A stretch of DNA of 64,000 bases from a virus: positions 56,029 to 120,028 of IMG/VR virus record IMGVR_UViG_3300045988_103986; one strand, given 5' to 3'. The position numbers and the translations under genes are program-made. Below, piece by piece: positions 4,507-61,820 of the stretch. Positions within the stretch are counted from its first letter, which is position 1; the number at the start of each line of letters is the position of its first letter. The notes beneath the pieces were generated by a model. That model was not told the DNA's origin. It saw only the letters and a list, made by a program, of their open reading frames with translations, and made no database searches.

Positions 4507-6780
4507 CTAGAAACACCATGCCGCTGTGATGCCGTCCACCTCGGACGCGACGCTCCAGTCCGCTTCACCGCTCCATCCAGTTCTGTCAAAGCAGGTGGTG
4601 CTGTTGAGTCTCGGCGAGCGCAAATACCATGCGCGGTTTTTCTTCCGGTTCGCGGCCGTCTTGTAATACTCGTACTGCGTGCCCTCGCCTGGATAGGAGA
4701 ATGTCCGTGTGCCCTGCACCTCGATCTCCGACAACAGGAACAGCGTGTCCTCCGTCGTGTCGATGGTCGAGCTGGCGCTGCCTGCCGAGGTTTTCTTCGT
4801 CACGGCTTTCATCGCAGCCACGACCTCTGCCGGCATCACCTGTCTCAGCTTCGGGAATGCATTGTACGTTCGCACCAGACAGTTCACCCAACCACAGCTA
4901 TTGCTCTCTGCACCGTTCATCTTATACTGCGTCGCGTAGGTCGTGTGCATCTGGAATGTCAGCGGAGCCTTGCCCGAGCCGTCGGCATAATCGTCGTGGT
5001 TCTTGCCGATGATGTCGATTGCGTAGGTCGTGTTGTTGATCGTCATGTTGCAGCTGTCGCCGACGTTCCATGTGTCAGGAACCGTTTTTGTCTGACAAGC
5101 AAGGATAATGTCTGCCCAGCTATTCTCTCCAAAGTTCTCGCTGAGTCCGTTCTGCAAGCCAAGTTCCAGCGCAGAGAGCAGGAAAACCTTTGATTCAACT
5201 CCGCTTGTCCCTGCTGAAACTGATGTTCCGCTCGCATATGGAATCTTGGCTGTTTGCAGAGCATTCCGAAGGTTCGCACTGAGAAGATTGTAGAAATCTC
5301 CGTTCAGATAAGAAGCAATCTGACTTCCAGAATAGATGCTTGTGCTGCCGCTTCCATTCCAGACCTGTTGATTGTAGAGCTGCTTCAGCATCAGCCACGT
5401 TCCGTTGCAGCTGCTGTCATACAGGCTGCTTTGCTGCGGGACACCTTGGTTGACCACGATGAACTCAAACTCAGCTCCATCTATCGTGTCTTTGACGATG
5501 GTGCCGGCTGGAAGATTGTCAATCGTCGTTACGTCTGCAGCTTCCTTCTGCCAATACGGATAGAGCGTCACGCTGGCATCCTGCGTGTATTGGGCTCCAA
5601 GACTATAGGCTTTCGCTCCGCCGTCAGTCAGGCTCCACCCGGTCTGTACATAGCCATCACGCGTGAATGTAACCCCACGAAGCGTGATAGCCGTCCCCTC
5701 CGTTTTTGTCTGCGTCTGCGTGCTGCCGACACCGTTTGCTCCGGGTGCATATGTAACGGTATAGGTGGCAAGTACAGTGGCCGTTGCTTTGGCTGTCAAC
5801 GCCAAATTCGAGCTAATACCGGAAACCGTGTACCTTTGAGCGGAGGACACCTTCACGTCAGAGGCGTTGTACCATCCATCAAACGTTACCTGATAGCCAG
5901 ACTGTGAACTCAGCGTGCAGTCCACCCAGCAAGATGTTTGGGTGTTCCCGTTGTAATCGATAAACGGGATGCCCTGATACTGCCTGGATACGTTTGCAAT
6001 GTAGTCCCCCGCTATCACGTCGACCGAATACTGATACCACTCGGCCGTCAGCTCAATATCTTCCGGCGTGGTGCCTAACGTCTGTCCTGGGCTAACAGAC
6101 ATTGTGTATCCGCTGGTAAGACCTACGGCGACCCAATTTGCGAAGGTATAGCCCGGCCGGCTCGGAATCGTTGTTGAGATTTGAACGTTTGTGTCTTCTC
6201 GCACGGTTTGCGAAGAAGGTGCGCCATATCCCCCGTTTGCGTTGTAGGAAATCGTGTGCGTCGGTACAGTGATCTCCTGCCAGACGCAGTAGAATACGCG
6301 GTCTACATATACCGTTGTTGTCTGCCCCGGCTGCCATTGGGCTGAGGTTGCACTGGCTGTGCCAGCATATCCGGCGAAGGTTTTTCCGGGCGGAGCGGAG
6401 AACGGACAATCCGGGATGGTGATGGTGGTGCCAAACGGGAACGTATTGCTCACGGATTGGCCGGTCCCATCATTGGCATAAATCGTGACTGTTTTATCCC
6501 CCTGCAATGTGGTAACAGGAGTTCCATTTCCTTCGATCTTCCCGCCATTTGCATCATAGAGCGTGCCAGTCAGATAATAACTCTTATTCGCTGTCAGTCC
6601 GGTAAACGTGACGGCATAATTATTCGACTTGTCAGAAGTCCTTTGACTTCTGGTCGATTCCCCGTCTGCATTCAGCACCCATTGCAGGTATGCAGCATCT
6701 GACGATGATCCGTCCGAAATGCTTTCGTAGTATTCCGCACTGATGGAGTTAGCAGTTGTTTCTAAGATTTTAATGCCCAT
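4507..6780 (-). CDS. Tail fibre/adhesin-like protein: FN3-like N-terminus, Listeria-Bacteroides repeats, truncated DUF6273, then a complete DUF6273 cassette
   Basis: 757 aa. Repeats include 'ISYNANGGYGAPSSQ', 'YTVTYAPGANGVGSTQ..GYVQTGWSL..LYPYWQ'. The 'KVFLLSALE' half-domain is followed by a complete domain ending 'AWYLRSPRLN...AAWCF'. The C-terminal ~190 aa are a near-identical copy of the C-terminus of the ORF at 25754-26671. Confidence 0.7.
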   Translation of the reverse strand: MGIKILETTANSISAEYYESISDGSSSDAAYLQWVLNADGESTRSQRTSDKSNNYAVTFTGLTANKSYYLTGTLYDANGGKIEGNGTPVTTLQGDKTVTIYANDGTGQSVSNTFPFGTTITIPDCPFSAPPGKTFAGYAGTASATSAQWQPGQTTTVYVDRVFYCVWQEITVPTHTISYNANGGYGAPSSQTVREDTNVQISTTIPSRPGYTFANWVAVGLTSGYTMSVSPGQTLGTTPEDIELTAEWYQYSVDVIAGDYIANVSRQYQGIPFIDYNGNTQTSCWVDCTLSSQSGYQVTFDGWYNASDVKVSSAQRYTVSGISSNLALTAKATATVLATYTVTYAPGANGVGSTQTQTKTEGTAITLRGVTFTRDGYVQTGWSLTDGGAKAYSLGAQYTQDASVTLYPYWQKEAADVTTIDNLPAGTIVKDTIDGAEFEFIVVNQGVPQQSSLYDSSCNGTWLMLKQLYNQQVWNGSGSTSIYSGSQIASYLNGDFYNLLSANLRNALQTAKIPYASGTSVSAGTSGVESKVFLLSALELGLQNGLSENFGENSWADIILACQTKTVPDTWNVGDSCNMTINNTTYAIDIIGKNHDDYADGSGKAPLTFQMHTTYATQYKMNGAESNSCGWVNCLVRTYNAFPKLRQVMPAEVVAAMKAVTKKTSAGSASSTIDTTEDTLFLLSEIEVQGTRTFSYPGEGTQYEYYKTAANRKKNRAWYLRSPRLNSTTCFDRTGWSGEADWSVASEVDGITAAWCF
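4508..5082 (-). repeat. Copy 1 of a 575-bp direct repeat (DUF6273 cassette, about 98% identical to 25755-26330)
   Basis: Aligned by eye, with roughly a dozen mismatches. Identity starts exactly at the stop codon and ends at ..tgtgtcaggaac. Confidence 0.9.
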
Positions 6781-11472: not shown

Positions 11473-14400
11473 TTAGCTGAAGTTCCCAAGCCCGAGCGCG
11501 AGATCCGCAAAGCGCTTGACACTCATGTTGCTTGCCTGCTGTTCACTGATCGTCACGCTGCCGAACTGATACGTGTTTCCGTTGTGCTGAGTGCCAATGC
11601 TATGGTTGTCATAGGAAGCCGTGGAGACCGTTTCAGCCTCGTGTTTCGTACTCAGGCAACTCCGCAGCGCATCCATATTGCGGTCGAAGTTCGCGTCTCT
11701 GACAGGCGACAGGAGCCGTTTCTTGAGCAGTTCCGTCACATCAGGAGGTGTGACACCTTCGTCCTGCATGGTCGCCTTGATGCCGCCCATGCCGTGCAGG
11801 ATGCCGCCCTGGTCATAAACCGTGTAGTGACGGCCGTACCGGTCTGTAATGGAAGTTGTACCATCCGCGTTTTTGACCCAGTAAGACTTATCTCCGCCGG
11901 TCATGGACGCGCCAGCCGGTTTATTGTTCAGGAAGTCAAGGCCGCTCGCGCTGGAGATCTTGTAGCGCTCTCCCTGCCCATCATCGGGCTCTGCGTAGAC
12001 AACACCAGAATACCGTTGACCGCCGTTCGTGGTGTCACCCGTGGTATCACCGGTGGTCTGGTTGGGATTGACCGTATAGGAAACGCCGTCCTTATCCACA
12101 ATGGTGACAGTTCCGTCGGGATTCTTTGTCCATGTTGAACCATCGCCGCCGGTCATGGTAGACCCTGCAGGCGCGTTGTTTACGAAGTCAATGCCCTTGT
12201 CACTACCAATTTCATACTTGCTTCCGTTGGAAGAAAGACCATACAGTTTCTTGGCCGTTTCCTTGACCGCATCGGAAAGCTCCGAAACATCAAATCCGAA
12301 CTGTTTGAAAAGCTCTGCGTTTTCCTGAATAATCTTCTTGAGCTCCGGCGTGGCGTTCTTCCAGATATCCTGCAGGATTTCGCCGATTCCACGCGTCTTC
12401 TCTTTCAGAGATTTCAGGAAGTTGTTGTAGCTCTTTTCGAGCGCATCGTACTGCGCGTTTATAGCGTCCTTCTTGGCTTCCAGTTCGGCCAGCGCGGCTT
12501 CGTAGGCCATGTTTGCCTTGAAGTCTTCGAGATCCTTTTTGGCGTCATCCAACGCTTCTTGCGCACTGTCCACTTCCTTCTGGTCCGCCACCCACTCCCA
12601 CTGACCGGTGCGAGCGTTGTACTGCCGGATGGTTCGCTCATTTTGTGCATTGGCAAGCTTGGCCTGTGCCTGCTGGACGGCGAGGATTTTTTCTTCGAGG
12701 TCCAACTGCTCGTCGCGGGTGTCTTTCTGCTGTTTGAGCGCATCAATCTGCGCGTCGATGGCATCCAGCTCATTTTGCCGCTGGTCAGAGAGGTCGGAGA
12801 GTTTGTCGGACATGACGTCCTGCAGTTCGCTCAAAAGCTCATCTGTACTTTTAAGCGTGCCATTGATTTTCTCTTGCCACTCCCACCATTCGGCAGAAAG
12901 CGCGTTGATATCCGCTTGACTGCCTCCGATGGACCGCAGATACTGTGCCTGCGCATGAAGCGCCTGCTGGATCTGCCGCATTTTGTCCTTCTGCGTGTCT
13001 TCGCTGGCATTCTGCTTTTCCAGCAAGGTCAGCTCGGACTTCAGAAGTTCGACTTTCTGTTTATGCGCTTCAAGGTTTGCATCGGAAGAGCTGCCTCCGC
13101 CGCCACCGGTCGAAGTCCCGGTATAGTCGGAGGTGTACTTTGAAAGCTCCTCCATCTGCTTTTTGTATTCTTCCTGCTGTTTTTTGTAATACTCGGAAGA
13201 CTTGTTCAGCAGATATTGAGAAGACCACTGCGCGTAATCCTCTGCGTCCTTCTTCCAGTTCTTCCCCGTCTGCTGGTTGAACAGACGGCGCATATTGAAC
13301 TCTTGATTCTCGGCTGACCACGTATTCGTTGTCAGCCCCGGAATCAAGCCGATCATCTGCTGAAGCTGCTGAGAAGTAATGATTGCAGAAGAACCAACCG
13401 CCTGAATCTGGGCAATCAGATTGTTATAGTTTGCGGTCGCAGCCGCATTTTGCAGTTCGAGCTCCTTCTTTGCAAGATCTGCGAGGGCGGTGTTGGTCGT
13501 GAGAGCCTTTTTCGCGTGCTCGGTCAATTTTCCGTTCGCGTCGAACAGAGACTTCGTGAGCTTTGCAGCAGCGGTGTTTTCGTTGTAGGTAGCGACCTCG
13601 ACTTCTTCGAGAGAATCTGCAAGTTTGTCCGCGCCGTCCGCAGCACCGGTCTCCGCCGTTTTGAGTTTGAGCGTACCGTCTGTGGCGGTCTCCACTTCAT
13701 TGCTCATCTCGCGGATATTCGGGTTTACCAGCCCGATGTGTTGCGCAAACCTCAGTGCTTCCGCCGCAGAGATTCCCAAGGCATTACCAATAGTGACGAC
13801 AATCTCCGCAGGATTATCATATTCTTTGAGAGACACGAAAGCTGCAACCATCGATTCAAACGAATCAACGTAGTGCTGCTGCTCGACAGTCAGGTCTTTA
13901 AGACCCTTGAGATATTTGTATCTACCGTCGTCTGCATCAATGAAAGCCTGATATTGTTCTTTCATGGTCTGGCTCATCTGAGTGCCAGACGATTTCGCTT
14001 GGGAAATGTACTGTGTGACCTGGTCCATGCCGGTCGCCTGAGACTCGGCGAACTTGTCCGCGCTGACAGTCACTTCGTCGAAGGTTATTCCAATCTGACG
14101 AAGCGCCTTTTCCATTTCCTCATATGCTTTTGCTGTGTTGCCGGATTCAATAAGTTCAGCTATTTTCTTCTTCGACGTCTCGCTGATATAATCATCAAAT
14201 GCAGAAATGTTGGCGCGAACGGCCTCTTCGACATTGTTATATTCAGTTGTGAGCGCTTTAAGCTGCTCTTGTGTCAGTTTGATCGAACGGACATTTGTGC
14301 CACCACTAGACAGATTTATGCGGCTTTCGCCCTTCTCATTTTGGGAAATATCTCCTGCATAAGAGATGGCTGTTGTAACGTCCGCAGAAAATGCCTTTTC

Positions 14401-16701
14401 AGCTGTTCTATTCGCCTCATTTTTCCGGAGTTCAAGAAGATATTCATACGCATCTATCGTTTGCTGAAGCTCTTCTTTTTCCTTCCGCCATTCCTCCCCT
14501 CGTTCTGCGTAAGGAGTCTGGTTGAGCTCATCGAGTTTTTCCTTTGCTTCCGCCAAATTGGCAGATGTTTCTTTTACCTGTTCCGATAAATCATGGAATG
14601 ACTCAATTAGATTCTCGTACTTCTGAGACTCTGCATAATCATTGAGCGCCTTTATTCCCGCAACAACGACGCCAATAGCTACACCAATAGCTACAATCGT
14701 TCCAAGCGTGGGATTTGAAAATAATTTGACAGCACCGGACGCAAAAGCTCCTGACGTTTTCAAACTGTTCAGGGTTACAAGCAGCCCATCAAGTGCCACG
14801 CCGGCTTTTTGGAAAGCAATTATAGCTTTGTAGAGGGCTGTTATCGATACTGCCACGCCGGCTACCGTAGCCATGAACTTTCCGAATCCGCTGTCAAGCG
14901 CCTCGACGAGTTTAATCAGTCCGTCAAGGGCACCTTTTATCAAGTCGGTGTCCGTCATGTGGCTGATGAATTCCGTCCACTTGTTCTTGAGAATATTGGT
15001 CTTACTTTCCCAAGAATTCAGCATAATGCTGACTTCTTTGTCAGCGCTGCCGGCAGACTCCGCGACCTTATCCAGCATCGCGGCGTACATATCATAGTTC
15101 TTGATAAGCGCGTCGAGCTGATTGGTGCGGAGTTTGCCGCCAAGATCGGATTCAAGGCTTGCCAGCTCTGATTGGGTCAAGAGTCCGTCCTTGTACGCTT
15201 TGGAAAGGCTTGCGATTGCCTGCATGGGGTCTACGAGTTTTCCGGACGCCTGCGCGGCCTTCATCGCGTCTTCAGCATAAATCCAGAGGGCGTCGTTGAG
15301 GCTGTTGATTTCTTCCTTTGTCCAAGAAACGCCGTCTTCAATTTCCGTCTCGGTGTCACCGATGATGTTCAGAATCAGCGCACGGAGAGCCGTCGCAGCC
15401 TTTGTACCGGACTCCTGCGTGACTGCGGTGATCGTGCCGAGCGCCGCCATCAGTTCATCGATGGACATATTCGCCATCGATGCAACGTTCGCAACAATCG
15501 GGAAGCCTTCGGCCATCTTCTGAATGGACGTGGCGTAGTTGTTTTCAATTTCGTTAGCTTTGTCGAGAACATCGTTGAGTTCTTCAACATTGCCCTTCAT
15601 CTGGTACGCCGCATCGGCCGAAAGAATGAACTGGTTCGCAATATCAGAGGTCACGTCGCCGACGAGCTGCGTCTTCGTTGCCAGCTCTGCCATGTCTTCT
15701 GACATTTCTTTATAGCCAGCCTTTGCGAATGTGCCGACAGATTCCAGATAGTCGGTGACAGCAACGCCGTACTTGGATGCAGCCTCATACGCTGTATTGC
15801 CCAGTTTCTCCATTTCGGCGGCAGTGTTGCCAGTAACCTTCTGGATAGCCGTCATTTCCGTATCGACCTGTTTCATCGTATCGATAGCTTCAGTAAACGA
15901 CCGCTTTACCTTTGCAACAGCCGCATTTACGACCTGCCAGACGGTGATTTTACCGACAATGTGGCTGAACGTGTCACCAAGGACATTGGTGGAGTTTGTG
16001 AGCTTATCCGTCTCGTTGCGGGTCTGCGCGTAGTTTGCACGAAGGTTTTTCAGCGAACCAGAAGCATCCTTTACGCCAGCGACAAATTCCTTATCGCTGA
16101 TAGCACCGCTTTTCCAGCTGCTATACAGGTTTTCGAGTGCAGCACTCGCCTGTTTTGCGTCGGATTCTATTTCAGAGAATGTACCGGTTGGATATTTCTC
16201 TGCTGCGGATTTCATCTGCAAGCCGAGGTCTGCAAAGCCTTTGCGGAGTGTATCGACCTTGGATGCAGCGTTTTCAGTTTCTTTTGCCTGTTCTTTCGCA
16301 GCCTTCTCAGCCTTTTCAGCGGCTTTCTGCGCCGCTTTTGCCATCGCATCGTAGTTGGTAGTTGCCTTTGTCTGAACCGTCGTGTACTGCTGCGTTTCTT
16401 CGTCCAGAGTCCGAATAATCTCAGTAGTCCGGCCAAGCCCTTCGTTGACGGTTTCAATCGTTCTGGTCGGTGCGCCATCTGCTGCGCCAGCCCAAACCTT
16501 TGTAAACTTTCCGCTCAGACCATCGACATTCTGCGTAATAGCCTGCACAGAGGTATTGAATCGATTGATTGCTTCCAGTCCGGAGGAATCAACAGTGAGT
16601 TTCAGTTTCTGATCCTTCAGGCCGTTTACATCCTTCACCAGCGAATCAAGCTGCGTGCGGATAACCTCTACCTGAAGTTGAACCTTTTCAAAATCTGCCA
16701 T
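11473..16701 (-). CDS. Tail tape measure protein
   Basis: 1742 aa and coiled-coil rich. TP901-type core region (ATSIQKMAEGFPIVANVASMANMSIDELMAALGTITAVTQESGTKAATALRALILNI). Hydrophobic segment LGTIVAIGVAIGVVVAGI. RBS AGGAGG before the ATG. Confidence 0.9.
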   Translation of the reverse strand: MADFEKVQLQVEVIRTQLDSLVKDVNGLKDQKLKLTVDSSGLEAINRFNTSVQAITQNVDGLSGKFTKVWAGAADGAPTRTIETVNEGLGRTTEIIRTLDEETQQYTTVQTKATTNYDAMAKAAQKAAEKAEKAAKEQAKETENAASKVDTLRKGFADLGLQMKSAAEKYPTGTFSEIESDAKQASAALENLYSSWKSGAISDKEFVAGVKDASGSLKNLRANYAQTRNETDKLTNSTNVLGDTFSHIVGKITVWQVVNAAVAKVKRSFTEAIDTMKQVDTEMTAIQKVTGNTAAEMEKLGNTAYEAASKYGVAVTDYLESVGTFAKAGYKEMSEDMAELATKTQLVGDVTSDIANQFILSADAAYQMKGNVEELNDVLDKANEIENNYATSIQKMAEGFPIVANVASMANMSIDELMAALGTITAVTQESGTKAATALRALILNIIGDTETEIEDGVSWTKEEINSLNDALWIYAEDAMKAAQASGKLVDPMQAIASLSKAYKDGLLTQSELASLESDLGGKLRTNQLDALIKNYDMYAAMLDKVAESAGSADKEVSIMLNSWESKTNILKNKWTEFISHMTDTDLIKGALDGLIKLVEALDSGFGKFMATVAGVAVSITALYKAIIAFQKAGVALDGLLVTLNSLKTSGAFASGAVKLFSNPTLGTIVAIGVAIGVVVAGIKALNDYAESQKYENLIESFHDLSEQVKETSANLAEAKEKLDELNQTPYAERGEEWRKEKEELQQTIDAYEYLLELRKNEANRTAEKAFSADVTTAISYAGDISQNEKGESRINLSSGGTNVRSIKLTQEQLKALTTEYNNVEEAVRANISAFDDYISETSKKKIAELIESGNTAKAYEEMEKALRQIGITFDEVTVSADKFAESQATGMDQVTQYISQAKSSGTQMSQTMKEQYQAFIDADDGRYKYLKGLKDLTVEQQHYVDSFESMVAAFVSLKEYDNPAEIVVTIGNALGISAAEALRFAQHIGLVNPNIREMSNEVETATDGTLKLKTAETGAADGADKLADSLEEVEVATYNENTAAAKLTKSLFDANGKLTEHAKKALTTNTALADLAKKELELQNAAATANYNNLIAQIQAVGSSAIITSQQLQQMIGLIPGLTTNTWSAENQEFNMRRLFNQQTGKNWKKDAEDYAQWSSQYLLNKSSEYYKKQQEEYKKQMEELSKYTSDYTGTSTGGGGGSSSDANLEAHKQKVELLKSELTLLEKQNASEDTQKDKMRQIQQALHAQAQYLRSIGGSQADINALSAEWWEWQEKINGTLKSTDELLSELQDVMSDKLSDLSDQRQNELDAIDAQIDALKQQKDTRDEQLDLEEKILAVQQAQAKLANAQNERTIRQYNARTGQWEWVADQKEVDSAQEALDDAKKDLEDFKANMAYEAALAELEAKKDAINAQYDALEKSYNNFLKSLKEKTRGIGEILQDIWKNATPELKKIIQENAELFKQFGFDVSELSDAVKETAKKLYGLSSNGSKYEIGSDKGIDFVNNAPAGSTMTGGDGSTWTKNPDGTVTIVDKDGVSYTVNPNQTTGDTTGDTTNGGQRYSGVVYAEPDDGQGERYKISSASGLDFLNNKPAGASMTGGDKSYWVKNADGTTSITDRYGRHYTVYDQGGILHGMGGIKATMQDEGVTPPDVTELLKKRLLSPVRDANFDRNMDALRSCLSTKHEAETVSTASYDNHSIGTQHNGNTYQFGSVTISEQQASNMSVKRFADLALGLGNFS

Positions 16702-17296: not shown

Positions 17297-18427
17297 TTAG
17301 GTCGAAGTGACCTCGACCTCGCAGGTGTCCTTGAACGTGGACTCGCCTGCGGTATAGCTGACCTCAACCGTGAAGTCACCGGCAGTAGCGCCGGCGGTAA
17401 TCAGACCAGTGTTTGCACCAACGGTCGTACCGTCGGGAGCGCCAGTCGCGGTATAGGTGAAGGTATTCGCGTCGCCCTTGACCAGTTCGCCATTCTTCAT
17501 GGCGATACGGGGCTGCATCTGATAGGTGGTGGACGCCTTGAGGGAAATGCCGCCGATGTTGGCAACAACGCCCTCGATCTCTTCCTCACCAGAAGCGCAC
17601 GGCTGGTAGATGTAGTACGCAAGGTCACTGCCCGCGCCGGCGCATTCGTCGCAGCCATCGGTGATGACGTCCGGGTCATAAGCGATAGCCTGACCAGACA
17701 GAGACGTGGTGTCGTTGTTGGTCTGGTCGCCGGTAATGCCGCCGTTTGCGCCAAACTTCAGGGACGGGATGATGATGTACAGCGTGCCAACACGAGTGCC
17801 CTCGTTCTGAGAGGAACCAGCAGACGTGGAGAAGACCGCCACAGTCGCAATGAAGTGAACGACCTTCGGGTCCATAGCCGTGGTGATGGTGGCAATCTGC
17901 GCAGTGGCCTTGTTGACGAAGTAGAAGACCTTGTAAGTCTTACCCGTAGTCGCGGTGAAACCGGAAACTGCGCCGTCAGTCGGGTTGATGTCATAGGCAA
18001 CACCACCGGTTGCGACCGGGGACGCAGCGCCGACTTCCTGGACATAGCAGAAGATCTTGGAGAAGCCCTTCTGCGCGACCGGCGTGCCTTCCTTGAGATC
18101 GATGGACAGTGAAGCAGTTGTAGCCGTGATAGTCTGGCACACCATGACCGGCGCGTTGTGCTGCAGCATTGCGCCCATCTGCGCTGCCTTCGCCCAGAGG
18201 TTGAAGTCGGCAGCAGTGAACTCGACGTTGACAGAAGCGTCGGAAGGAAGCGTGGTTGCGATAGCGTTGCCAAGGCCAGCGCGGATTTCGCCGATGGTGA
18301 CGCTCGGCGTCACGTTACCGGTCTGGAACTTGTTGGAGAAGTAAAGAATCTGGCCGGTAGTCTTGTCCGTACAGATTGCTTCGCCGATGCCCTTCGCGTA
18401 AAGGCGGGAGTCAGTAAAACGAATCAT
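17297..18427 (-). CDS. Major tail (tube) protein with C-terminal Ig-like domain
   Basis: 376 aa with RBS AAAGGAG. Position upstream of the tape measure gene. C-terminal Big_2-like segment (TFTYTATGAPDGTTVGANTGLITAGATAGDFTVEVSY). Followed by a stabilising hairpin. Confidence 0.6.
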   Translation of the reverse strand: MIRFTDSRLYAKGIGEAICTDKTTGQILYFSNKFQTGNVTPSVTIGEIRAGLGNAIATTLPSDASVNVEFTAADFNLWAKAAQMGAMLQHNAPVMVCQTITATTASLSIDLKEGTPVAQKGFSKIFCYVQEVGAASPVATGGVAYDINPTDGAVSGFTATTGKTYKVFYFVNKATAQIATITTAMDPKVVHFIATVAVFSTSAGSSQNEGTRVGTLYIIIPSLKFGANGGITGDQTNNDTTSLSGQAIAYDPDVITDGCDECAGAGSDLAYYIYQPCASGEEEIEGVVANIGGISLKASTTYQMQPRIAMKNGELVKGDANTFTYTATGAPDGTTVGANTGLITAGATAGDFTVEVSYTAGESTFKDTCEVEVTST

Positions 18428-20121: not shown

Positions 20122-20700
20122 TCAAGCTCCCTCCGGCTGTTTCTTCCGGCTTTCCATGTAGTCAGCGAATGCCTTCTGCGCGTCCTTCAGCTCGTTCAGC
20201 GCGCCGCTGACAGCCTCTGGCGTGGTCTGCTGCTGCAGCGCCATGATGATGCGTGTGACCGGCTCGTTCATGACCTGCGTGAGGCCGTAGATTTCGGTAT
20301 TCAGCCGCTTTTCGAGGTCGCGCATATCTGCAACCACGTCAAATGCCTTATCCCGAACCTCTCCGTCGTAGCGCTTCAGGCGCTCAATCTGGTTCATGAT
20401 GTGGCTCGCGGCAAAGCGGTCGAAATCCGGAGTTGACATAATCCAAGGATTCTTCTCTGACTCGAATGCCTCGCCCAAGTAGAGCTTCGCATATGCCGCC
20501 ATGAGCACACGACTCTTGATTGCCGTGTTTTCTTTATAGAGCGGCGGCATCGGCATACTGTCCAGTCCGCTATCAATCTTCAGCTCCACGCGGTCAAAGC
20601 AAAGATCCGCCGCCTCTTTGACGAGCTGCATCTTCTCAAGCAGCGGAACATAGTCCGGCATCTGCATGAGTTTTTCCTTCGTAATAACGATCTTTTCCAT
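20122..20700 (-). CDS. Hypothetical structural protein (192 aa)
   Basis: RBS AAAGGAG before the ATG at 20700. Confidence 0.5.
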   Translation of the reverse strand: MEKIVITKEKLMQMPDYVPLLEKMQLVKEAADLCFDRVELKIDSGLDSMPMPPLYKENTAIKSRVLMAAYAKLYLGEAFESEKNPWIMSTPDFDRFAASHIMNQIERLKRYDGEVRDKAFDVVADMRDLEKRLNTEIYGLTQVMNEPVTRIIMALQQQTTPEAVSGALNELKDAQKAFADYMESRKKQPEGA

Positions 20701-20744
20701 ACCTTCACGACTCCTTTCGGTTGTATGGCTCAGTTTATTGTATG

Positions 20745-20921
20745 CTAGGTTTTAATCTTGCAGTGGGCTTCTCCGTCGGAAACCTCCCACTTTTTTGTCC
20801 TTGCGCACAAATATTGATGTGCGCACCAATCATGTCGTTCGCCTTTTTCTGTAAGATACCGGCAATGCAGACTCACGTCGCCGTTTTTACGGTAGGCGTA
20901 TTCGCAGTAATGTGCGCCCAT
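20745..20921 (-). CDS. Small Cys/His-rich protein (58 aa)
   Basis: MGAHYCEYAYRKNGDVSLHCRYLTEKGERHDWCAHQYLCARTKKWEVSDGEAHCKIKT. Below the ORF-track cutoff. Follows paralog E. Confidence 0.4.
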   Translation of the reverse strand: MGAHYCEYAYRKNGDVSLHCRYLTEKGERHDWCAHQYLCARTKKWEVSDGEAHCKIKT

Positions 20922-20930
20922 GTTTTCTTC

Positions 20931-21355
20931 TCATCCTTCCGTGATATCCGCTCTGTAAGAGTAACGGTAAAACTTCACAGTGACGTCTTTTTTCAGGACG
21001 TACTCGTAGTTTATAAAGCTTTTCTGTTCAGCGACTTTGTTCCCGTTTAAATACACAGAGCAGTTTGCTTTGTCTGCATTCGATATGATGATGCTGATTT
21101 TGGCCCCAGAAGGCAGCACTACACTTTCAGAAAACAAGTATTGGTTGTTGTAGTTCACCCACATATAATACGTAGAGCCGCCATTCCAGCCGTCTACGAC
21201 TGTAAGAATCACTTCTTTTGGCGCGAATGCGATCTCATATGTGGTCCCCTCGACCTGCGTCCACCCCCCCCGATATGGAATATAGTTCCATCTACGAGGT
21301 TGGTCCCGCCGGTGATGTCATAGCTCGTACCGGCGATTATGGTTTTATGGCTCAT
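20931..21355 (-). CDS. Fibre-tip-like paralog E; reading frame split at poly-G(8) and would be continuous with G9
   Basis: AGGAGG RBS plus ATG at 21355 opens MSHKTIIAGTSYDITGGTNLVDGTIFHIGGG. After the tract, the long ORF (..WTQVEGTTYEIAFAPKEVILTVVDGWNGG..) lies in the -1 frame and has neither an RBS nor an ATG of its own. Confidence 0.7.
21264..21271 (-). repeat. Homopolymeric G8 tract (C8 on the plus strand) inside paralog E
   Basis: Counted directly in the sequence. Confidence 0.9.
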
Positions 21356-21382
21356 GTTGCCTCCTAGTTCGCGCTTTGTTTT

Positions 21383-21849
21383 TCATTCTGTGACGTATGT
21401 GTTGTAAACATCTATAGCAATTGCACCGTCTCCCCATGGGTTTGCCGTCTGAATAGAGTCATAAAGCGTAACGGTCACGTCTGAATTTACTGTGTAATCG
21501 TACCAAAGCACGCTGCTGCTAGAGTCGGCTTTACGGACGTTGTTTATAAAAACTGATCCGGTATGATTGTATTCTCCGCCGTACTTCAACTGAATGACTT
21601 CGCCTTTTTCCACTGTCAGGGTTTTCGGCGCAGAGTACAGGGTGCCGTTATACTTTACCCGATTGGTATTGTAGCCCGAACCGCCGTTAACGATCGTTAC
21701 CGTCACGTACTCGGTTTTCTTCAGTACGATATCGACGGCTGTCCCATCAATCAACGTTTTGCCTTGTTCAATTGAATATACCGTTCCACCAATGAGGGCT
21801 TTACCCCCCCCACTTGGTAATTAGTACCATTCACAAGTGCATTTGCCAT
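21383..21849 (-). CDS. Fibre-tip-like paralog D; frame split at poly-G(8), needs G9
   Basis: GAGGTGG RBS plus ATG at 21849 opens MANALVNGTNYQVGG. The continuation GKALIGGTVYSIEQGKTLIDGTAVDIVLKK... lies in the -1 frame. Confidence 0.7.
21804..21811 (-). repeat. Homopolymeric G8 tract inside paralog D
   Basis: Counted directly in the sequence. Confidence 0.9.
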
Positions 21850-22310
21850 CATGCCACCTCAGTGAAATACTGGCCGATCAGCTCGTGCGGGAGATACTGC
21901 AGGGTGATCTTGTCGCCGGCCGTTGCGCCGGTGCGCTCGCAGAGGTAGAGTTTGCTGTCTTCCGGGTCGGTATAGTACAGGCCGTAGGTGTACTCCATGC
22001 CTCTGGACGCCGGGATCGGGTCTTCCCGCGTGCCGGCGTGCTGCTCATCGATGACGGTGAAGAGCGCAGGAGTCTTATCCGGCTCCCAGCCGGTTTGAGT
22101 GGTGTGGCCCTGGCCTTTGTTGACGCGGTACAGCTTGTCCACGCCGTCGGTCGCGAAGACGAGCCGGTCGCCGGGCTTGACCACCATATCGGGGGCCCAG
22201 CGGGCGTAGAGTTCCTTCGCCTGCAGCGCGTCTGCGTCATCCAGATATGCAGACGCCTTCACGATGAATGGGCGCAGGGCCCGTGCGCGTTCGGTGTATG
22301 TAGTAGCCAT
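21849..22310 (-). CDS. Hypothetical protein (153 aa) with a possible CBM5/12-like W..P/Y..GD motif pattern
   Basis: Translationally coupled with its neighbours (ATGA-type overlaps). Motifs 'YARWAPDMVVKPGDRLVF..DKLYRVNKGQGHTTQTGWEP'. The domain call is weak. Confidence 0.45.
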   Translation of the reverse strand: MATTYTERARALRPFIVKASAYLDDADALQAKELYARWAPDMVVKPGDRLVFATDGVDKLYRVNKGQGHTTQTGWEPDKTPALFTVIDEQHAGTREDPIPASRGMEYTYGLYYTDPEDSKLYLCERTGATAGDKITLQYLPHELIGQYFTEVA

Positions 22311-22702
22311 TATTCTGCCTCCCCCATCAAGATTTTTGCCGCCTGTTCGGCGTCCGCTGCCTGCTCGCGGGCAAGCTCAAGTTCGGTCTTTTTGCCCATC
22401 TTCGCCGTCACGGTCCCGTCTCGATTATCGGTAATAGGGCCTGCGACAGCGTAGTCGGCGTTGTCCCATTCCTGCACCTGCTCCTCGGTCGCGCCGGTGG
22501 GGTTGCCGTCGGTGTCGTAGACGGGGACGGTATCGCGCTGGATGATGGACCAGCTCAGTCCGTCCACAAACAGCTGCGCGGCGGCAGCGTGGGTCATGGT
22601 CAGCGTGACGGCCTTGCTCTCGCGCCCGCCCCAGTCCCGGTCGGTGACTTTCCCGGCGATCGACGCCGGATATTCGGTGTTATTTGTCTTAAAATAAATC
22701 AT
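22310..22702 (-). CDS. Hypothetical protein (130 aa), common companion of Firmicutes prophage tail-fibre genes
   Basis: ORF with start/stop overlap to the next gene. C-terminal Ala/Glu-rich helix. Confidence 0.45.
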   Translation of the reverse strand: MIYFKTNNTEYPASIAGKVTDRDWGGRESKAVTLTMTHAAAAQLFVDGLSWSIIQRDTVPVYDTDGNPTGATEEQVQEWDNADYAVAGPITDNRDGTVTAKMGKKTELELAREQAADAEQAAKILMGEAE

Positions 22703-22706
22703 GTTG

Positions 22707-23169
22707 TCATCCCTTTCTTTTCAGTATGACTGTGCAAACTATATAAGACGCTGCCATTGGCCACCCTATGTAGCTTGCTCCCGTTGAATATTTGGCGTTT
22801 ATCGTCAGCTTCCCGTTTACAGTCGCGTTTTCTGTTATTTTATAATTGAGAAGTTCATATCCCGAGCTCATAGCATTGGTGTACGCTCTGTTAAACCTAA
22901 TCGAATTTTCTATGGATGTTTTTACGGCTATGAAACGTGAAGATTGTTGTCCGAAAACAAAGTATTCAGCAAGATCGTATTTCGTCCAGTCAAACGCAGC
23001 ATTTTCGAGCGTCATCACTTCCTTGCTGATCGACGTCGGGTTCATCTCAACAACAACCGTGTCGTTCACTTCGCGGGTAGCCATGATACTGTAGACTGTG
23101 CCGTCGATCATGACTTTACCCCCCCCCAACTTGGTAATTCGTACCATTTAAAAGTGCAACGTGTGCCAT
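22707..23169 (-). CDS. Fibre-tip-like paralog C; frame split at poly-G(9), needs G8
   Basis: AGGAGG RBS plus ATG at 23169 gives MAHVALLNGTNYQVGGG followed by TAA. The continuation KVMIDGTVYSIMATREV... lies in the +1 frame. The ORF-track start at 23147 has no RBS. Confidence 0.7.
23119..23127 (-). repeat. Homopolymeric G9 tract inside paralog C
   Basis: Counted directly, and consistent with the ORF-track translation LGGGK. Confidence 0.9.
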
Positions 23170-23182
23170 GCTGATTCCTCCT

Positions 23183-23705
23183 TTATGCTGGCTCGAAAGA
23201 TAAAACCTTCACATACGCGCTTAAATCGCCCAAGCACGGATTTATCATGTTGAAATTAGGTCTATAGGTTCCTTCTTTTGTCGCTTGTATAGTAAAAATC
23301 ATTGATTTGTTGTCACTCGCCTCATGATAATCAGTGACACCATCGCCAGTAATGGTATTGCAGTTTCCTGTGACCTGTAATTGCAAAATGCCAGGCGTCA
23401 TCTGGATTGTCATCGAGTTTCTACTTAGATACACGTATTGCGCTTTCGAACCAAATGATACGCTCCCCTCCGTGCTCGGGTAAGTGAGCGTAGGCATTTG
23501 AATGTCTTTAGTGCTGTCGTATTGACTAAGCACGTAACGCCACGACATATCAATCGTGTACGATCCTTTTGAGAACAGGATGTCATACCTGGTCCCGTTT
23601 ACAAGTGTGCGACCCCCCCCCGATTTGGAATATAGTTCCATCTACGAGGTTGGTCCCGCCGGTCACGTCGTAGCTCGTACCGGCGATTATGGTTTTATGG
23701 CTCAT
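23183..23705 (-). CDS. Fibre-tip-like paralog B; frame split at poly-G(9), needs G8
   Basis: GGAGG RBS plus ATG at 23705 (ATGA overlap with paralog A's stop) opens MSHKTIIAGTSYDVTGGTNLVDGTIFQIGGG. The continuation RTLVNGTRYDILFSKG... lies in the +1 frame. Confidence 0.7.
23613..23621 (-). repeat. Homopolymeric G9 tract inside paralog B
   Basis: Counted directly, and consistent with the ORF-track translation SGGGR. Confidence 0.9.
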
Positions 23706-24156
23706 GTTTTTGCCTCCAAGACGATGGTGTATATGCTACCCTCAACAAGTAAATTTGCAGATGGGAGCGCTGGGAGCACCGCTTTTCCGTTTTGTGAAAA
23801 ATTGAACATTGATGTTACACTTGGGCTATCTGCAGATGAGACACCGCTGTAATGTCCGCCGGAAACTATTCCATTCATTTTCTGATAATTTTTCTCATAC
23901 ACAATTAAGACCGTCACTCCGGTCATATTGTAATATCCGGCAGTTGCGTACAGCGCTTGCACGACTTCATATTTGTCGTAATCCAAGCGTGCATCATTAA
24001 CCGTGAAGCTGCCATTTACAGTAGACGGCAGTTTGCCAGTAACAACAATGGTCTTCTCCACTTCCTTGGTCGTCATGATCGAGTAGGCCGTTCCATCAAT
24101 GAGAGCTTTACCCCCCCCACTTGGTAATTCGTGCCATTTACAAGTGCATTTGCCAT
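23702..24156 (-). CDS. Fibre-tip-like paralog A; frame split at poly-G(8), needs G9
   Basis: GAGGTGA RBS plus ATG at 24156 opens MANALVNGTNYQVGG. The continuation GKALIDGTAYSIMTTKEVEK... lies in the -1 frame. Confidence 0.7.
24111..24118 (-). repeat. Homopolymeric G8 tract inside paralog A
   Basis: Counted directly in the sequence. Confidence 0.9.
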
Positions 24157-24165
24157 AATTTCACC

Positions 24166-24546
24166 TCATGTTGCATCCGATTTCGGAATAGCGATATAGT
24201 AGTAGGTAGAGCCATTGTAACTGTCATTAAAATACGCGGCACTTGAAGCTGAATTTGCTTTTAACGTTACCGACTTTCCATCCCACACGACCGTTCCCAA
24301 TCTATCAAAAGACGTATTTCCACTACGTTGTCCGGTTAAGCCTGTTTCTCCATTTATCAGTTCAATCTCAGATTCAAGATACCCAGAACTGATCCAATGA
24401 ATTTTAAAAAGGGCTAGTTCAAAGTCAAAAGCAAATGTTCGGCTTAAATTTCCATTTCCTTTATAAGACCCGATAACTGCGCCTTTGTCACCGCTTCCTC
24501 CGCCTATTGTATATATGGTTCCGTTGACTAAAGTCTTACCGCTCAT
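24166..24546 (-). CDS. Fibre-tip-like paralog P1, the only intact family member with no homopolymer
   Basis: GGAGGA RBS 9 nt before the ATG at 24546. MSGKTLVNGTIYTIGGGSGDK.. has the same LVNGTxYxIGGG motif, but GGG is encoded GGC GGA GGA. Confidence 0.7.
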   Translation of the reverse strand: MSGKTLVNGTIYTIGGGSGDKGAVIGSYKGNGNLSRTFAFDFELALFKIHWISSGYLESEIELINGETGLTGQRSGNTSFDRLGTVVWDGKSVTLKANSASSAAYFNDSYNGSTYYYIAIPKSDAT

Positions 24547-24564
24547 TACATATATCCTCCACAA

Positions 24565-25731
24565 TCACTCATATTGCCAAGCAATGGTTCCGTTGATGGA
24601 AGGCGTCGTCTCTGCTGAGAACAGTGCCTCGCCACGGGCCATGTAGGTCGTATAGTTGCTATCCGCAATATTTACTGCATTATTACGATTAAGCGCCGTA
24701 TTGATATTGCTAGTCGTTGCTGCGCCCACATCGGCCGCAGAAAGTGACACCACGCCGGTCTTATTGTTGACACTGGTTACAGGGGCAGATTTAATATAAT
24801 CCACACCTTCTTCAGCGATTTCCCATGCGGTTGGAACGCCACTGGAATCTACAGATTTTACCTTAATAAGGTCTCCGACCGCCGCGCCGGACGAGATGAG
24901 CGTGTCTTGCTTCTTTGCAAGAGCTGTGTTGAGGTCGCTTTCCGTCTGGAATTTCGCATCGTTGTCGAGGTCAGAAGACTTTCCGCTGAATGCGACCGTC
25001 TTCAAATCCGAGAACCATTTTGCGATTTTTCCAAAGAGGACGGAAAGCTTGTCGCCGGAAGCGACGTTTTCGCGTACCGCCGCCTGTTCGAAAGTCGCAG
25101 TCGTCTCGGAAGAATCGCCAGTCTTCTTGAGGTAATCAGTGGTAACAAAGTCTTCCGTGGCGAGTTTCTTCGAGCCGTTGTCCATGCCGGTGCCGCTGGT
25201 AGATCCGACGTAGACGTCGCCGGCATACCATGCGTTGCCGTTCCAGTCCATCGTATGGGCGTTGGAGCGGTTCGAATTGGAAGTTCCATTGCCCACGATA
25301 TGCTGATAAGTACCACGTCCGGAAGGCTCATTCCCAGACGGGTCCTGAACGTTGTACTCACCCTCTACATGCTGAGAGCGATTTGCTGCGACAGTTCCGG
25401 TCCCTTCGGCGTGTGCGGCCTGTCCGGAAGCCTCCGTGGAGGAACCTTCTGCATGAGAACAATCGCCAGAAGCCTTTGTGCCGCTGTTCTGCGCATGGGA
25501 AGCGCTGCCGGACGCGACTGCTCCGTTACCTTCTGCATGAGCACTGGCTGCGGATGCAGACGTACCGGAGCCAAACGCCGTCGCGTTTGCACCGGAAGCA
25601 GCTGCTGCACCCGCTTGCTTCAGCGCGCCAGCTCCGGCCCCGTTCTCAAGGTTCGTCGCAGTGGAGCGCTCTTCCACGTCTTTCTTGCGAGGAATCGATA
25701 AGTCCTCATTGTATTTCGTAAGGTTTCTCAT
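24565..25731 (-). CDS. Tail/neck fibre protein with YadA-head-like SHAEG repeats and an SVNxKTGxVxLxAADVGA motif
   Basis: 388 aa. Repeats 'AHAEGNGAVASGSASHAQNSGTKASGDCSHAEGSSTEASGQAAHAEG'. 'VTSVNNKTGVVSLSAADVGA'. N-terminus MRNLTKYNEDLSIPRKK is shared with the ORF at 26668-26997. Confidence 0.7.
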   Translation of the reverse strand: MRNLTKYNEDLSIPRKKDVEERSTATNLENGAGAGALKQAGAAAASGANATAFGSGTSASAASAHAEGNGAVASGSASHAQNSGTKASGDCSHAEGSSTEASGQAAHAEGTGTVAANRSQHVEGEYNVQDPSGNEPSGRGTYQHIVGNGTSNSNRSNAHTMDWNGNAWYAGDVYVGSTSGTGMDNGSKKLATEDFVTTDYLKKTGDSSETTATFEQAAVRENVASGDKLSVLFGKIAKWFSDLKTVAFSGKSSDLDNDAKFQTESDLNTALAKKQDTLISSGAAVGDLIKVKSVDSSGVPTAWEIAEEGVDYIKSAPVTSVNNKTGVVSLSAADVGAATTSNINTALNRNNAVNIADSNYTTYMARGEALFSAETTPSINGTIAWQYE

Positions 25732-25753
25732 GTGATTTCCTCCTACATGTTAA

Positions 25754-26671
25754 TTAGAAACACCATGCCGCTGCGATGCCGTCCACCTCGGACGCGACGC
25801 TCCAGTCTGCTTCACCGCTCCACCCAGTTCTGTCAAAGCAGGTGGTGCTGTTGAGTCTCGGCGAGCGCAAATACCACGCGCGGTTTTTCTTCCGGTTCGC
25901 GGCCGTCTGGTAATACTCGTACTGCGTGCCCTCGCCTGGATAGGAGAATGTCCGTGTGCCCTGTACCTCGATCTCCGACAACAGGAACAGCGTATCCTCC
26001 GTCGTGTCGATAGCCGAACTGGCGCTGCCTGCCGAGGTTTTCTTCGTCACGGCTTTCATCGCAGCCACGACCTCTGCCGGCATCACCTGTCTCAGCTTCG
26101 GGAATGCATTGTACGTTCGCACCAGACAGTTCACCCAACCACAGCTATTGCTCTCTGCACCGTTCATCTTATACTGCGTCGCGTAGGTCGTGTGCATCTG
26201 GAATGTCAGCGGAGCCTTGCCCGAGCCGTCGGCATAATCGTCGTGGTTCTTGCCGATGATGTCGATTGCGTAGGTCGTGTTGTTGATCGTCATGTTGCAG
26301 CTGTCGCCGACGTTCCATGTGTCAGGAACTTCTTTGTTATGCACAGCGGCAATGATGTCGGGCCAGCTGTTCTCGGAGAATACAGCCTTGATTAAAACGA
26401 CGCTAATCGCTTGCGTCGTGGTCGCAGTAACACCGAACTCTGTAAAGCTGATTGTGATCGCGGTATCACCCGTCGCGGCGACCGTGGGCGAGTATGTGAA
26501 TCCAGTTGTCACTTCTCTGGTCGCGCCATTGGAATACGTTGCTTCCAGTACCATTCCGGAAACGTCTATGGTCTCGTCCACTTTATATTCAGTCACTGTC
26601 GGTGGTGTCTTTACCGCAATGCTGGAAAGCTCAATTCCTCCAGACTTCTTATAAATCGTGTTTACAATCAT
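25754..26671 (-). CDS. Ig-like domain plus DUF6273 domain protein (fibre distal module)
   Basis: 305 aa. N-terminal Ig-like segment (PTVTEYKVDETIDVSGMVLEATYSNGATREV). The C-terminal domain ending AWYLRSPRLN..AAWCF is about 98% identical at the nucleotide level to 4508-5082. Coordinates are taken from the ORF track. Confidence 0.7.
   Translation of the reverse strand: MIVNTIYKKSGGIELSSIAVKTPPTVTEYKVDETIDVSGMVLEATYSNGATREVTTGFTYSPTVAATGDTAITISFTEFGVTATTTQAISVVLIKAVFSENSWPDIIAAVHNKEVPDTWNVGDSCNMTINNTTYAIDIIGKNHDDYADGSGKAPLTFQMHTTYATQYKMNGAESNSCGWVNCLVRTYNAFPKLRQVMPAEVVAAMKAVTKKTSAGSASSAIDTTEDTLFLLSEIEVQGTRTFSYPGEGTQYEYYQTAANRKKNRAWYLRSPRLNSTTCFDRTGWSGEADWSVASEVDGIAAAWCF
25755..26330 (-). repeat. 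Copy 2 of the 575-bp DUF6273 cassette direct repeat
   Basis: See 4508-5082. The copies are 21.2 kb apart in the same orientation. Confidence 0.9.
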
Positions 26672-26997
26672 ATAGCAGCCTCTTGAATGCTAACCAAGAT
26701 ATTGATATCGCCAGTGGGGATTTTATCGCATGTGAATGTCAGAAGATTTGCCGCCTGTGAGCGAAGCCAGACACCGGCTTCGTAGTATGCGTCCTGCATG
26801 GATGAAACAGGAGCAGCCTCAATCCGCTGCTTCGTTTCATCAGCGGAGATTCCGTCAACAACAATAGATTGCTGCATTGTCGCGCTGTCCCACGCGGAAG
26901 CCGGAAGCGTTGCCTGTACGATCTTCACCATAGCAAGGATGACTTTTTCTTTCGTCGGGACCGCTAGATCGTTATCGTATTTTGAAAGGTTCTTCAT
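26668..26997 (-). CDS. Fibre N-terminal anchor-like protein (109 aa)
   Basis: N-terminus MKNLSKYDNDLAVPTKEK parallels that of the 388-aa fibre. ATGA overlap with the following DUF6273 gene. Confidence 0.5.
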   Translation of the reverse strand: MKNLSKYDNDLAVPTKEKVILAMVKIVQATLPASAWDSATMQQSIVVDGISADETKQRIEAAPVSSMQDAYYEAGVWLRSQAANLLTFTCDKIPTGDINILVSIQEAAI

Positions 26998-61314: not shown

Positions 61315-61820
61315 GGAACCGTCTTTTATCTTTCACTTCTTTCAACAGCTCTTTGAATCTTTCATCCAGTTCGTCCAGTTCAATTTCATTCTGCATCTTA
61401 TCCGATTCCGCCACTTATTCCACGTTCCTTTCCAATTCTTACGTTTGTTTCGTGTGTCCTATTTTAAAACGAATGTTCGTAAAAAGCAACTGCTCATATT
61501 GCACAAACATTTCGTTTATTTTTCTACTATTTGGATTCCACAATTTATTTGACGGAAAGTTATTTCGTCAGCCCCACCGCCTGTGCCAGAGGCGGCAGGG
61601 CATTGCAGCAGACCATATTGCTTTGCCCACTGGATCGCTACGCCTACAGCGTAGCAGACAGGCAGAATTTTGAAAAGATGGAGTTCTGCGGTTTTTACAC
61701 GAAATTTGCGATTTCAGCATTTCAGTTTTGAAATTTTATTGAAAATCATGCGAATTACCATAGTGTGGCGTAAATCCCCCGGCTTTATCCGTTGGAAATG
61801 TCAAGATGGAGGTTATATCT

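Follow-up and report, generated by a model that had tools for sequence, protein, structure and literature searches.

A poly-G contingency array of predicted adhesin cassettes in a temperate phage assigned to gut Oscillospiraceae

Introduction

Why should a phage carry five related genes that are each broken, at the same point, by a run of G's? The question is raised by a 64,000-nucleotide stretch of viral DNA (positions 56,029 to 120,028 of IMG/VR record IMGVR_UViG_3300045988_103986; the whole stretch is called the window below, and coordinates refer to it), in which an array of small paralogous genes lies at 20931-24546. A preliminary description of the window had proposed that the array is a contingency locus, the genes being switched on and off independently by slipped-strand events at the G runs. 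We consider it very probable that these are indeed slipped-strand contingency loci, which independently switch accessory virion adhesin cassettes with a shared N-terminal module (N-module) in the late operon of a temperate siphophage of gut Oscillospiraceae.

Results

Five paralogous genes are split at poly-G tracts and are out of frame

The array genes are all encoded on the minus strand, and the tracts therefore appear as poly-C on the plus strand. Five of the genes, which we call cassettes A to E, are each split by one G8 or G9 tract, and all five are out of frame (OFF) in the window. We rebuilt every gene with tract lengths from n-2 to n+2: in each of the five, one length class (modulo 3) gave a protein of 141-173 amino acids (aa), the other classes stopping within 0-20 codons. 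Cassette A (23702..24156, ATG at 24156) has a G8 tract at 24111-24118 and needs G9 to encode its 151 aa. The same holds for cassette D (21383..21852, ATG at 21852, G8 at 21804-21811, 156 aa) and for cassette E (20931..21355, ATG at 21355, G8 at 21264-21271, 141 aa), the latter being restored by either G9 or G6. Conversely, cassettes B (23183..23705, ATG at 23705, 173 aa) and C (22707..23169, ATG at 23169, 153 aa) have G9 tracts at 23613-23621 and 23119-23127, respectively, and need G8. Both the splits and this frame arithmetic had been given in the preliminary description, and rebuilding the genes reproduced them exactly.

An AGGAGG/GAGGTG-type ribosome-binding site lies 6-9 nucleotides (nt) 5′ of the ATG in all five cassettes, and the tract lies 40-90 nt 3′ of the ATG. 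The long continuation behind the tract had been said to lack a start codon and a ribosome-binding site of its own. We likewise found no convincing starts, but the shifted frames of B and C do contain an upstream ATG (at 23641 and 23147, respectively), with no Shine-Dalgarno sequence before either. These ATGs are created in the +1 frame by the GAT-GG / AAT-GG (Asp/Asn-Gly) codons of the repeat motif; in the state with one G too many, which is that of B and C here, open reading frames (ORFs) of 152 and 146 aa run from them through the tract. A promoter and terminator scan gave signals at background level.

The N-module consists of one to three 14-residue repeats, K-T-L-V/I-x-G-T-x-Y-x-I-x-x-G, and the tract occupies the x-x-G linker between two repeats, coded GGG-GGG-GG(G). 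At the DNA level the modules that hold the five tracts fall into two families, one comprising A, C and D (87-92% identical) and the other B and E (96% identical over 95 nt), and the five tracts are thus not five independent events. The C-terminal parts had been described as unrelated between paralogs. This is not so for all of them, A and C being homologous to about residue 67 (52% identity). A sixth member of the family (24166..24546), of 126 aa, is intact; it has one N-module repeat and no tract, and its GGG is coded GGC GGA GGA, as had been reported.

The homopolymer is maintained by selection

G/C runs are rare in this genome. Under a first-order Markov model, the window should contain 10.6 runs of 6, 2.55 of 7 and 0.64 of 8 or longer; the 64 kb in fact have 1, 0 and 5, respectively, and the maximum number of runs of at least 8 in 100 simulations was 3. 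The five tracts are the sole G/C runs of at least 7. A single codon position in one gene family is therefore the exception to a general avoidance of G/C runs in this genome. Outside the array, G/C homopolymers are strongly depleted (one run of 6-7 vs. about 13 expected), and this suggests that selection acts against slippage-prone G runs throughout the genome. Among the glycine codons, GGG is the least used (123/1019), and none of the 11 other Gly-Gly-Gly tripeptides in structural genes uses GGG-GGG.

The protein sequence does not require the run either. The same C-terminal domains occur behind N-modules that have no tract (P0003-P0011, L006 1258-2022 and a 273-aa protein of L092, the L numbers designating related loci and the P numbers database proteins), and the homopolymer is therefore dispensable for coding, in agreement with the preliminary description. 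One such homologue, with the same C-terminal domain and a tract-free N-terminal module, reads MAHKTLIDGTAYAVKGGRDLIAGTGYAKKQGKTLIAGT... When the N-modules are aligned, as three 14-residue repeats, the linker of these tract-free relatives reads KQG, ESG, DKG or PKG at the tract position; this variability indicates that the homopolymer is a derived feature in a permissive linker. The tract is nevertheless kept across diverged N-modules and across two phage groups, and in a pattern search of IMG/VR 47 of 49 matches were family members. We conclude that selection maintains the tract, which the protein sequence could do without.

Tract length is polymorphic among related loci

Related loci were gathered by a DNA pattern search, from contigs with in-frame homologues, from contigs with an identical 153-aa anchor protein (listed in 51 blocks of the collection; 23 contigs were read) and by a scan of species-representative genomes. 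Tract lengths were taken from the assembled sequences, and cassettes were called ON (in frame) or OFF from an ATG start plus the motif. The 59 loci contain 109 family-associated tracts: 28 G7, 41 G8, 32 G9, 6 G10, 1 G11 and 1 G13. In loci that were not retrieved through an in-frame protein, 27 tracts were ON and 58 OFF (32% ON). Individual phages have 0-3 cassettes ON among 2-7 tracts, in the stretch covered for each. The window genome, with 0 of 5 ON, indicates that the cassettes are accessory.

Orthologous tracts differ in length. The ATC-Gn-TCGCAC tract is found as G7, G8 (ON), G9 and G10 in different assemblies with identical flanks, and the cassette B tract, with the same downstream flank, as G7, G8 (ON), G9 and G10 in other samples. 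Similarly, GTT-Gn-TAAAGC occurs with G8 (ON), G9 or G10, and AGT-Gn-TAAA with G8, G9 (ON) or G13. Cassette D has 11 full-length in-frame homologues (155-156 aa, 99-100% coverage) that other assemblies encode as single ORFs. For cassette A, the orthologues in frame include P0028, P0039 and P0040 and those of L005/L006/L007, and the cassette C orthologue in L001 is ON.

Near-identical loci differ at the same places. L043 and L048 align over 7368 bp with 0 substitutions and 2 tract indels, and L044 and L049 over 5834 bp with 0 substitutions and 1 tract indel. For L006 vs. L043 the figures are 1 substitution and 3 tract indels in 4002 bp, and for L044 vs. L050, 4 substitutions and 5 tract indels in 5767 bp. 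Together these four pairs (about 23 kb, 99.8-100% identical, different accessions) show 5 substitutions and 11 length changes, every indel lying inside poly-G. Tract length polymorphism is thus far above the background substitution rate, and the multi-gene contingency array is real, selected and hypermutable. A search of related phages for the same tracts at other lengths, recommended in the preliminary description, has accordingly turned them up (G7-G13), and its proposal of independent slipped-strand switching is upheld: orthologous tracts vary in length, loci that are otherwise near-identical differ there, and ON and OFF states both occur.

A profile search with the N-module returned hundreds of database proteins of 30-80 aa (P0044-P0163), some of which recur on at least 20 contigs. 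Most of these are stubs of OFF cassettes or pieces of cassettes cut by contig ends, and for this reason the search did not reveal the range of C-terminal domains.

DNA-level switching accounts for the data better than recoding, assembly error or decay

A full-length product could be made from an OFF allele without any change in the DNA. Transcriptional slippage, or programmed -1/+1 frameshifting on G GGG GGG, would then yield a fixed fraction of full-length protein, and DNA length variation would be incidental. We think this unlikely, although less so than the two other rivals considered below. In its favour, RNA polymerase is known to slip on long homopolymers in both bacteria and viruses, and a -1 slip on the G8 alleles of A, D and E would, judging from their sequence, give the exact V/I-G-G-G-K/W junction of the in-frame protein. 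Leaky expression would also explain the purifying selection on cassette types that are seldom if ever found ON, with a ratio of non-synonymous to synonymous polymorphism (pN/pS) of 0.15. Against this, the shifts needed are opposite, A, D and E requiring +1 nt and B and C -1 nt, and the tract varies from G7 to G13 among orthologues with in-frame alleles common, where a programmed site would conserve its length. Since the length is not fixed and the shifts are of opposite sign, slippage at the RNA or ribosomal level is not the main mechanism. It may coexist with DNA-level switching as a source of leakiness, which would help explain cassettes that are intact but (almost) never ON, namely cassette E and the TCT-Gn-TGAA types. 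A programmed ribosomal frameshift site was rejected as a candidate on the G7-G13 range among orthologues and on the difference in shift direction between paralogs.

A second explanation, which we regard as very improbable, is that the tracts are homopolymer sequencing or assembly errors: the true lengths would restore all frames, the genes would be intact and the variation technical. Runs of G8-G13 are indeed error-prone on several platforms, it is suspicious that all five genes of the window are broken, and lengths misread at random would likewise leave about one third of the tracts in frame. However, L047 and L052 match the window at 100.000% identity over 4.3-5.1 kb, all five tract lengths included. 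The window also has 39 A/T runs of 6, yet its long genes (up to 1742 aa) are uninterrupted, and the ORF at 61806-62432 stays open across an A8 run. The lengths differ by up to 5 nt between assemblies from ENA, Logan, NCBI and JGI, made with different assemblers. Even if individual lengths were wrong, a conserved G8-9 at one linker position in a genome depleted of G runs would mark hypermutable sites.

The cassettes might lastly be decaying pseudogenes, remnants of duplicated fibre genes that were inactivated at a mutational hotspot and have no present function; we give this the least credence of the three. About two thirds of the tracts are out of frame, the window genome has none in frame, and truly broken cassettes do exist (at position 2606 of L004, and through an insertion sequence (IS) in L043/L048). 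Nonetheless, a change of tract length alone restores the full-length ORF in 100 of the 109 cases, the other 9 being cut by contig ends or otherwise broken. Downstream of the tract, pN/pS is 0.07-0.70, and 0.07-0.40 in most groups, indicating purifying selection; even the TCT-Gn-TGAA type, ON in 1 of about 16 cases, gives 0.15. The ribosome-binding sites are intact, and decay would not be expected to spare the tract across diverged N-modules and two phage groups. Inversion switching of the shufflon or Gin-Cin kind was rejected, there being no inverted repeats of at least 25 nt in 20700-26800 and all cassettes lying on one strand.

The cassette products are likely virion-borne adhesins

Returning to slipped-strand switching, what is being switched? 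The cassette proteins are likely virion-borne adhesins or receptor-binding modules docked by the common N-module. We read them as accessory virion adhesins because of the late-operon setting among fibre-like genes, a domain (DUF6273) shared with distal-tail proteins, the location of a cassette after tail proteins in the related locus L092, and the immunoglobulin (Ig)-like and CBM5/12 matches of a 130/153-aa gene pair within the array (described below). DUF6273 is the C-terminal domain of switchable cassettes in some relatives, and in the window it is also present in 757- and 600-aa distal-tail proteins (4507-6780 and 2688-4490) encoded downstream of the tape measure gene.

Predicted structures are in line with such a role. 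The AlphaFold2 (AF2) model of cassette A, with a predicted local distance difference test score (pLDDT) of 74, comprises beta-hairpin repeats and a jelly-roll-like domain, and that of cassette D (pLDDT 69) has N-terminal beta-hairpins and a beta-sandwich. Foldseek matches were weak (best PDB E 0.01-0.1) and included legume lectins, a carbohydrate-binding module (CBM), a baseplate protein of Klebsiella phage KP1 and the tailspike of cyanophage Pan3; somewhat stronger structure matches were to uncharacterised gut phage proteins. We count the all-beta models, with their weak lectin, jelly-roll, CBM and phage-tail matches, toward a structural or adhesin role, and a fibre-tip role of the predicted cassette proteins is plausible.

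We envisage that the x-x-G linker between two repeats was recoded to GGG-GGG-GG(G), giving a run of G7-G13, to which polymerase slippage in the prophage or during lytic replication would add or remove G's. Each cassette would flip heritably, reversibly and independently between a full-length protein and a 15-50-aa stub, the N-module acting as the common dock and the variable beta-sandwich or jelly-roll C-domain as the binding part. We infer that switching diversifies adsorption or host range as a form of bet-hedging. The figure of up to 32 virion types advanced in the preliminary description holds as arithmetic and is not an observation.

Several points weigh against this interpretation. The array is upstream, in the direction of transcription, of the tube-like gene (17297-18427) and the tape measure gene, and hence does not occupy a distal-tail position. 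The fold matches are weak (best PDB E about 0.01) and the cassettes belong to no Pfam or PHROG family: searches of Pfam and of PDB sequences found no family for them, and at E≤0.01 four of the five had no PHROG match, cassette E having one marginal match (phrog_7690, E=0.0082). An ON fraction of one third would be expected from random phase, yet none of the 8 observations of the cassette E type, all with G7 or G8, was ON, and the TCT-Gn-TGAA type was ON once in about 16. An overall fraction near one third would also arise by unselected drift and thus does not establish adaptive bet-hedging. Finally, some of the length variation from one assembly to another could reflect noise in the consensus or in assembly at homopolymers, and some of the differing accessions may derive from one sample.

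It should be noted that in the cassette E and TCT-Gn-TGAA types G7 and G8 dominate where G9 is needed, the downstream frames being intact. The ON state of these two types may be rare because it is selected against, because mutation is biased, or because the protein is made through slippage at the RNA or ribosome level.

Genes in and around the array

The six family members had been described as one row of genes. They are not contiguous: two genes unrelated to the cassettes, both on the minus strand, separate C from D. The first (22310..22702) encodes 130 aa and has a weak Ig-like (invasin D3) match; the second (21849..22310) encodes the 153-aa anchor protein by which related loci were gathered, belongs to phrog_27545 and has a weak CBM_5_12 match. 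This pair is conserved together in all related arrays. By eye, from its translation, the N-terminal region of a 296-aa protein of L092 resembles the 130-aa gene product.

Immediately upstream of the array is a gene for a 388-aa fibre-like protein (24565..25731, minus strand) that matches PHROG families including tail protein phrog_26941. It is kept upstream of the arrays in L005, L006, L043, L044, L046, L047, L048, L050 and L052. The 126-aa sixth member is also constant, directly following the 388-aa gene in L044, L046, L047, L050 and L052. Next to the 388-aa gene, on the same strand, a 305-aa protein (25754..26671) with an Ig-like region and DUF6273 (Pfam E=3.3e-9) forms part of the fibre/adhesin block.

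The fibre block as a whole, made up of the array and of 511-, 305- and 388-aa proteins, separates the head genes from the tube gene and is not adjacent to the distal-tail genes. This head-to-tail placement rests on precomputed Pfam matches to orthologous neighbours (YomX_C, YomW, YomU_Tube, YomN and PhageMin_Tail), which mark the structural module as SPbeta-like. The literature yielded no usable SPbeta virion structure for placing the neighbouring proteins. In relatives of 20-40 kb (e.g. L092), one poly-G cassette comes immediately after the tail proteins and a DUF6273 protein with a tract-free N-module. Compared with the window, this shows that array position depends on lineage. The fibre-tip or distal-fibre assignment made in the preliminary description accordingly finds support in the smaller relatives, where the cassette comes after tail genes, but not in the arrangement here, with the array between head and tail-tube genes.

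The phages are temperate and assigned to gut Oscillospiraceae

The window contains an integrase gene (62609-63796) and genes for a helix-turn-helix (HTH) repressor-like regulator, RecT, a portal protein and a tape measure (11473-16701). Homologues of the anchor gene are found in genomes and metagenome-assembled genomes (MAGs) of Oscillospiraceae (Oscillibacter, Pseudoflavonifractor, Intestinimonas, Subdoligranulum and Anaeromassilibacillus). These gene contents and relatives support an assignment of the phages as temperate siphophages of Oscillospiraceae, and sustain the earlier identification of a Firmicutes temperate phage. The genome scan with the anchor gene returned mostly distant prophages without cassettes, indicating that the poly-G array is a lineage-specific elaboration. 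A BLASTN comparison of the region with GenBank phages gave three short matches, to unannotated records of human-faecal phages.

A different small-gene setting for poly-G was seen at position 7234 of L023 and at 6320-7700 of L018 (Subdoligranulum variabile MAG QAKI01000051). In L018, three small paralogs that are unrelated to the cassettes lie just upstream of a homologue of the 153-aa gene. Each has a short leader ORF running into G10, G10 or G9, followed by an ORF of about 100 aa, and in one of the three frames the leader stop overlaps the downstream ATG (ATGA / TAATG). This arrangement suggests poly-G-dependent translational coupling, as opposed to ORF fusion. An array of this kind in the same genomic slot suggests that gating by poly-G may be a strategy used more generally by this group of phages and hosts.

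Comparison with known systems

Combinatorial phase variation of this kind has until now been described mainly from Campylobacter phages, and the closest phage precedent is found in the Fletchervirus myophages of Campylobacter jejuni. As relayed in later accounts of the original work, G7-G11 tracts lie in their receptor-binding protein genes, and slipped-strand length changes switch these proteins to give phenotypically mixed populations (Sorensen et al. 2021 Cell Rep 35:109214, via PMC8713573, PMC11959909 and bioRxiv 10.1101/2025.10.21.683753). Two of up to four receptor-binding proteins are phase variable (PMC8713573), and a 2025 review of gut phages treats the system as an exceptional case (PMC11959909). 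The array resembles it in having poly-G tracts within phage structural or host-recognition genes, the role being predicted here. It differs in that Fletchervirus is a lytic myovirus of a Gram-negative host, whereas the phages studied here are assigned as temperate siphophages of Gram-positive gut Oscillospiraceae; in that 3-7 paralogous cassettes are found per genome, with the tract at the same linker of a shared N-module and the cassettes shuffled between strains; and in that function was demonstrated experimentally for Fletchervirus, while that of the array is predicted.

Homopolymer repeats in coding regions have also been described in T2/T4 and other phages, where they cause reversible frameshifts and the resulting heterogeneity was read as bet-hedging (Gomez, Barrick & Waters, bioRxiv 2025, 10.1101/2025.10.21.683753). 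The same preprint argues that contingency loci are general in phages. Those loci are mostly short repeats (6 nt or more) in all gene classes; here the runs are long, are the sole ones of their kind and affect one paralog family. Tropism switching is achieved in other phages by the invertible G/C segments of Mu/P1 and by diversity-generating retroelements of the BPP-1 type (cited in PMC12823448). These share with the array alternative receptor-binding ends within one phage lineage (predicted in our case), but operate by inversion or mutagenic retrohoming instead of a frameshift switch, and no invertase or reverse transcriptase was seen near the array.

Two further systems offer instructive parallels. 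The G/GT tail assembly chaperones of lambda are produced at a fixed, conserved -1 site that lies between the genes for the tube and the tape measure, and the phage needs both products. As in the array, a slippery run in the late operon connects a short upstream frame to a longer product; the array differs in its variable run length, in a shift direction that is not the same for all paralogs and in its gene position. In Neisseria, the opa genes are paralogous adhesin genes with a CTCTT repeat in the 5′ coding region, each switched independently. The likeness extends to a paralog family with a repeat in the conserved 5′ part, a variable ligand-binding part and stochastic, combinatorial on/off states, the adhesin role of the array proteins being predicted. 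The Opa proteins are bacterial outer-membrane proteins, their genes are scattered and the pentamers lie in the signal-peptide region, whereas the array belongs to a phage, is nearly tandem and uses a mononucleotide run. By this comparison, it is the opa family that the array would most resemble functionally.

Full-text literature searches turned up no account of poly-G arrays in gut Clostridia phages. What is new relative to the precedents is the host group and lifestyle, the location of the switch in the shared adaptor module of a paralog array, the shuffling of cassettes between strains, and the breadth of the phenomenon (47 of 49 IMG/VR matches). With somewhat more confidence than doubt, we propose that a family of human-gut Oscillospiraceae phages carries 3-7 poly-G-gated paralogous adhesin or receptor-binding cassettes, that one prophage lineage continuously yields virions with different combinations of binding domains, and that this is the phage counterpart of Neisseria opa and the first combinatorial contingency array of several genes to be described for phages whose hosts are Gram-positive commensals.

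If this is true, the contingency principle would be extended in three respects: to temperate phages that are abundant and uncultured and belong to one of the major groups of commensals in the human gut; to a paralog array whose members share the adaptor module that bears the switch; and to combinatorial operation, with several cassettes switching independently of one another. The array would also provide a concrete candidate mechanism for host-range breadth and for the persistence of gut prophages. On the practical side, gene callers split the cassette genes, leaving many 30-50-aa stubs in databases, and polishing pipelines may 'repair' genes split by poly-G. The hypothesis is directly testable from existing metagenomic reads.

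Other features of the array loci and the phage genome

In the 130.5-kb contig L008/L009 (ENA ERZ15609992 NODE_108), a segment of about 5.76 kb with a whole cassette array occurs twice in tandem, at about 22.5-40.7 kb, with identical tract lengths in both copies. Its genes encode 228, 169, 49, 158, 48, 76, 137, 108, 159, 30, 114, 58, 192 and 229 aa. The tandem segment could be a real duplication or an assembly artefact. The IS element mentioned above (DUF4096 plus DDE_Tnp_1 ORFs) lies inside the array at 5182-5966 of L043 and 4090-4874 of L048, where it truncates a cassette-B-type gene in both of these otherwise identical loci.

A 23.6-kb contig labelled Helicobacter pylori SHZY19 (L026, NZ_JAHXLB010000019.1) encodes a homologue of the 153-aa gene (46% identity) and a 415-aa protein with a G7 run in its N-terminal GGG. 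It is probably a contamination of the H. pylori assembly.

Two genes of mobile-element type are present on the minus strand of the window. One, at 1483-2586, is of the TnpB / IS605 OrfB type (Cas12f-like TNB domain) and follows the distal tail genes, and the other, at 43911-44744, is GIY-YIG/NUMOD1 homing-endonuclease-like and lies near the packaging genes.

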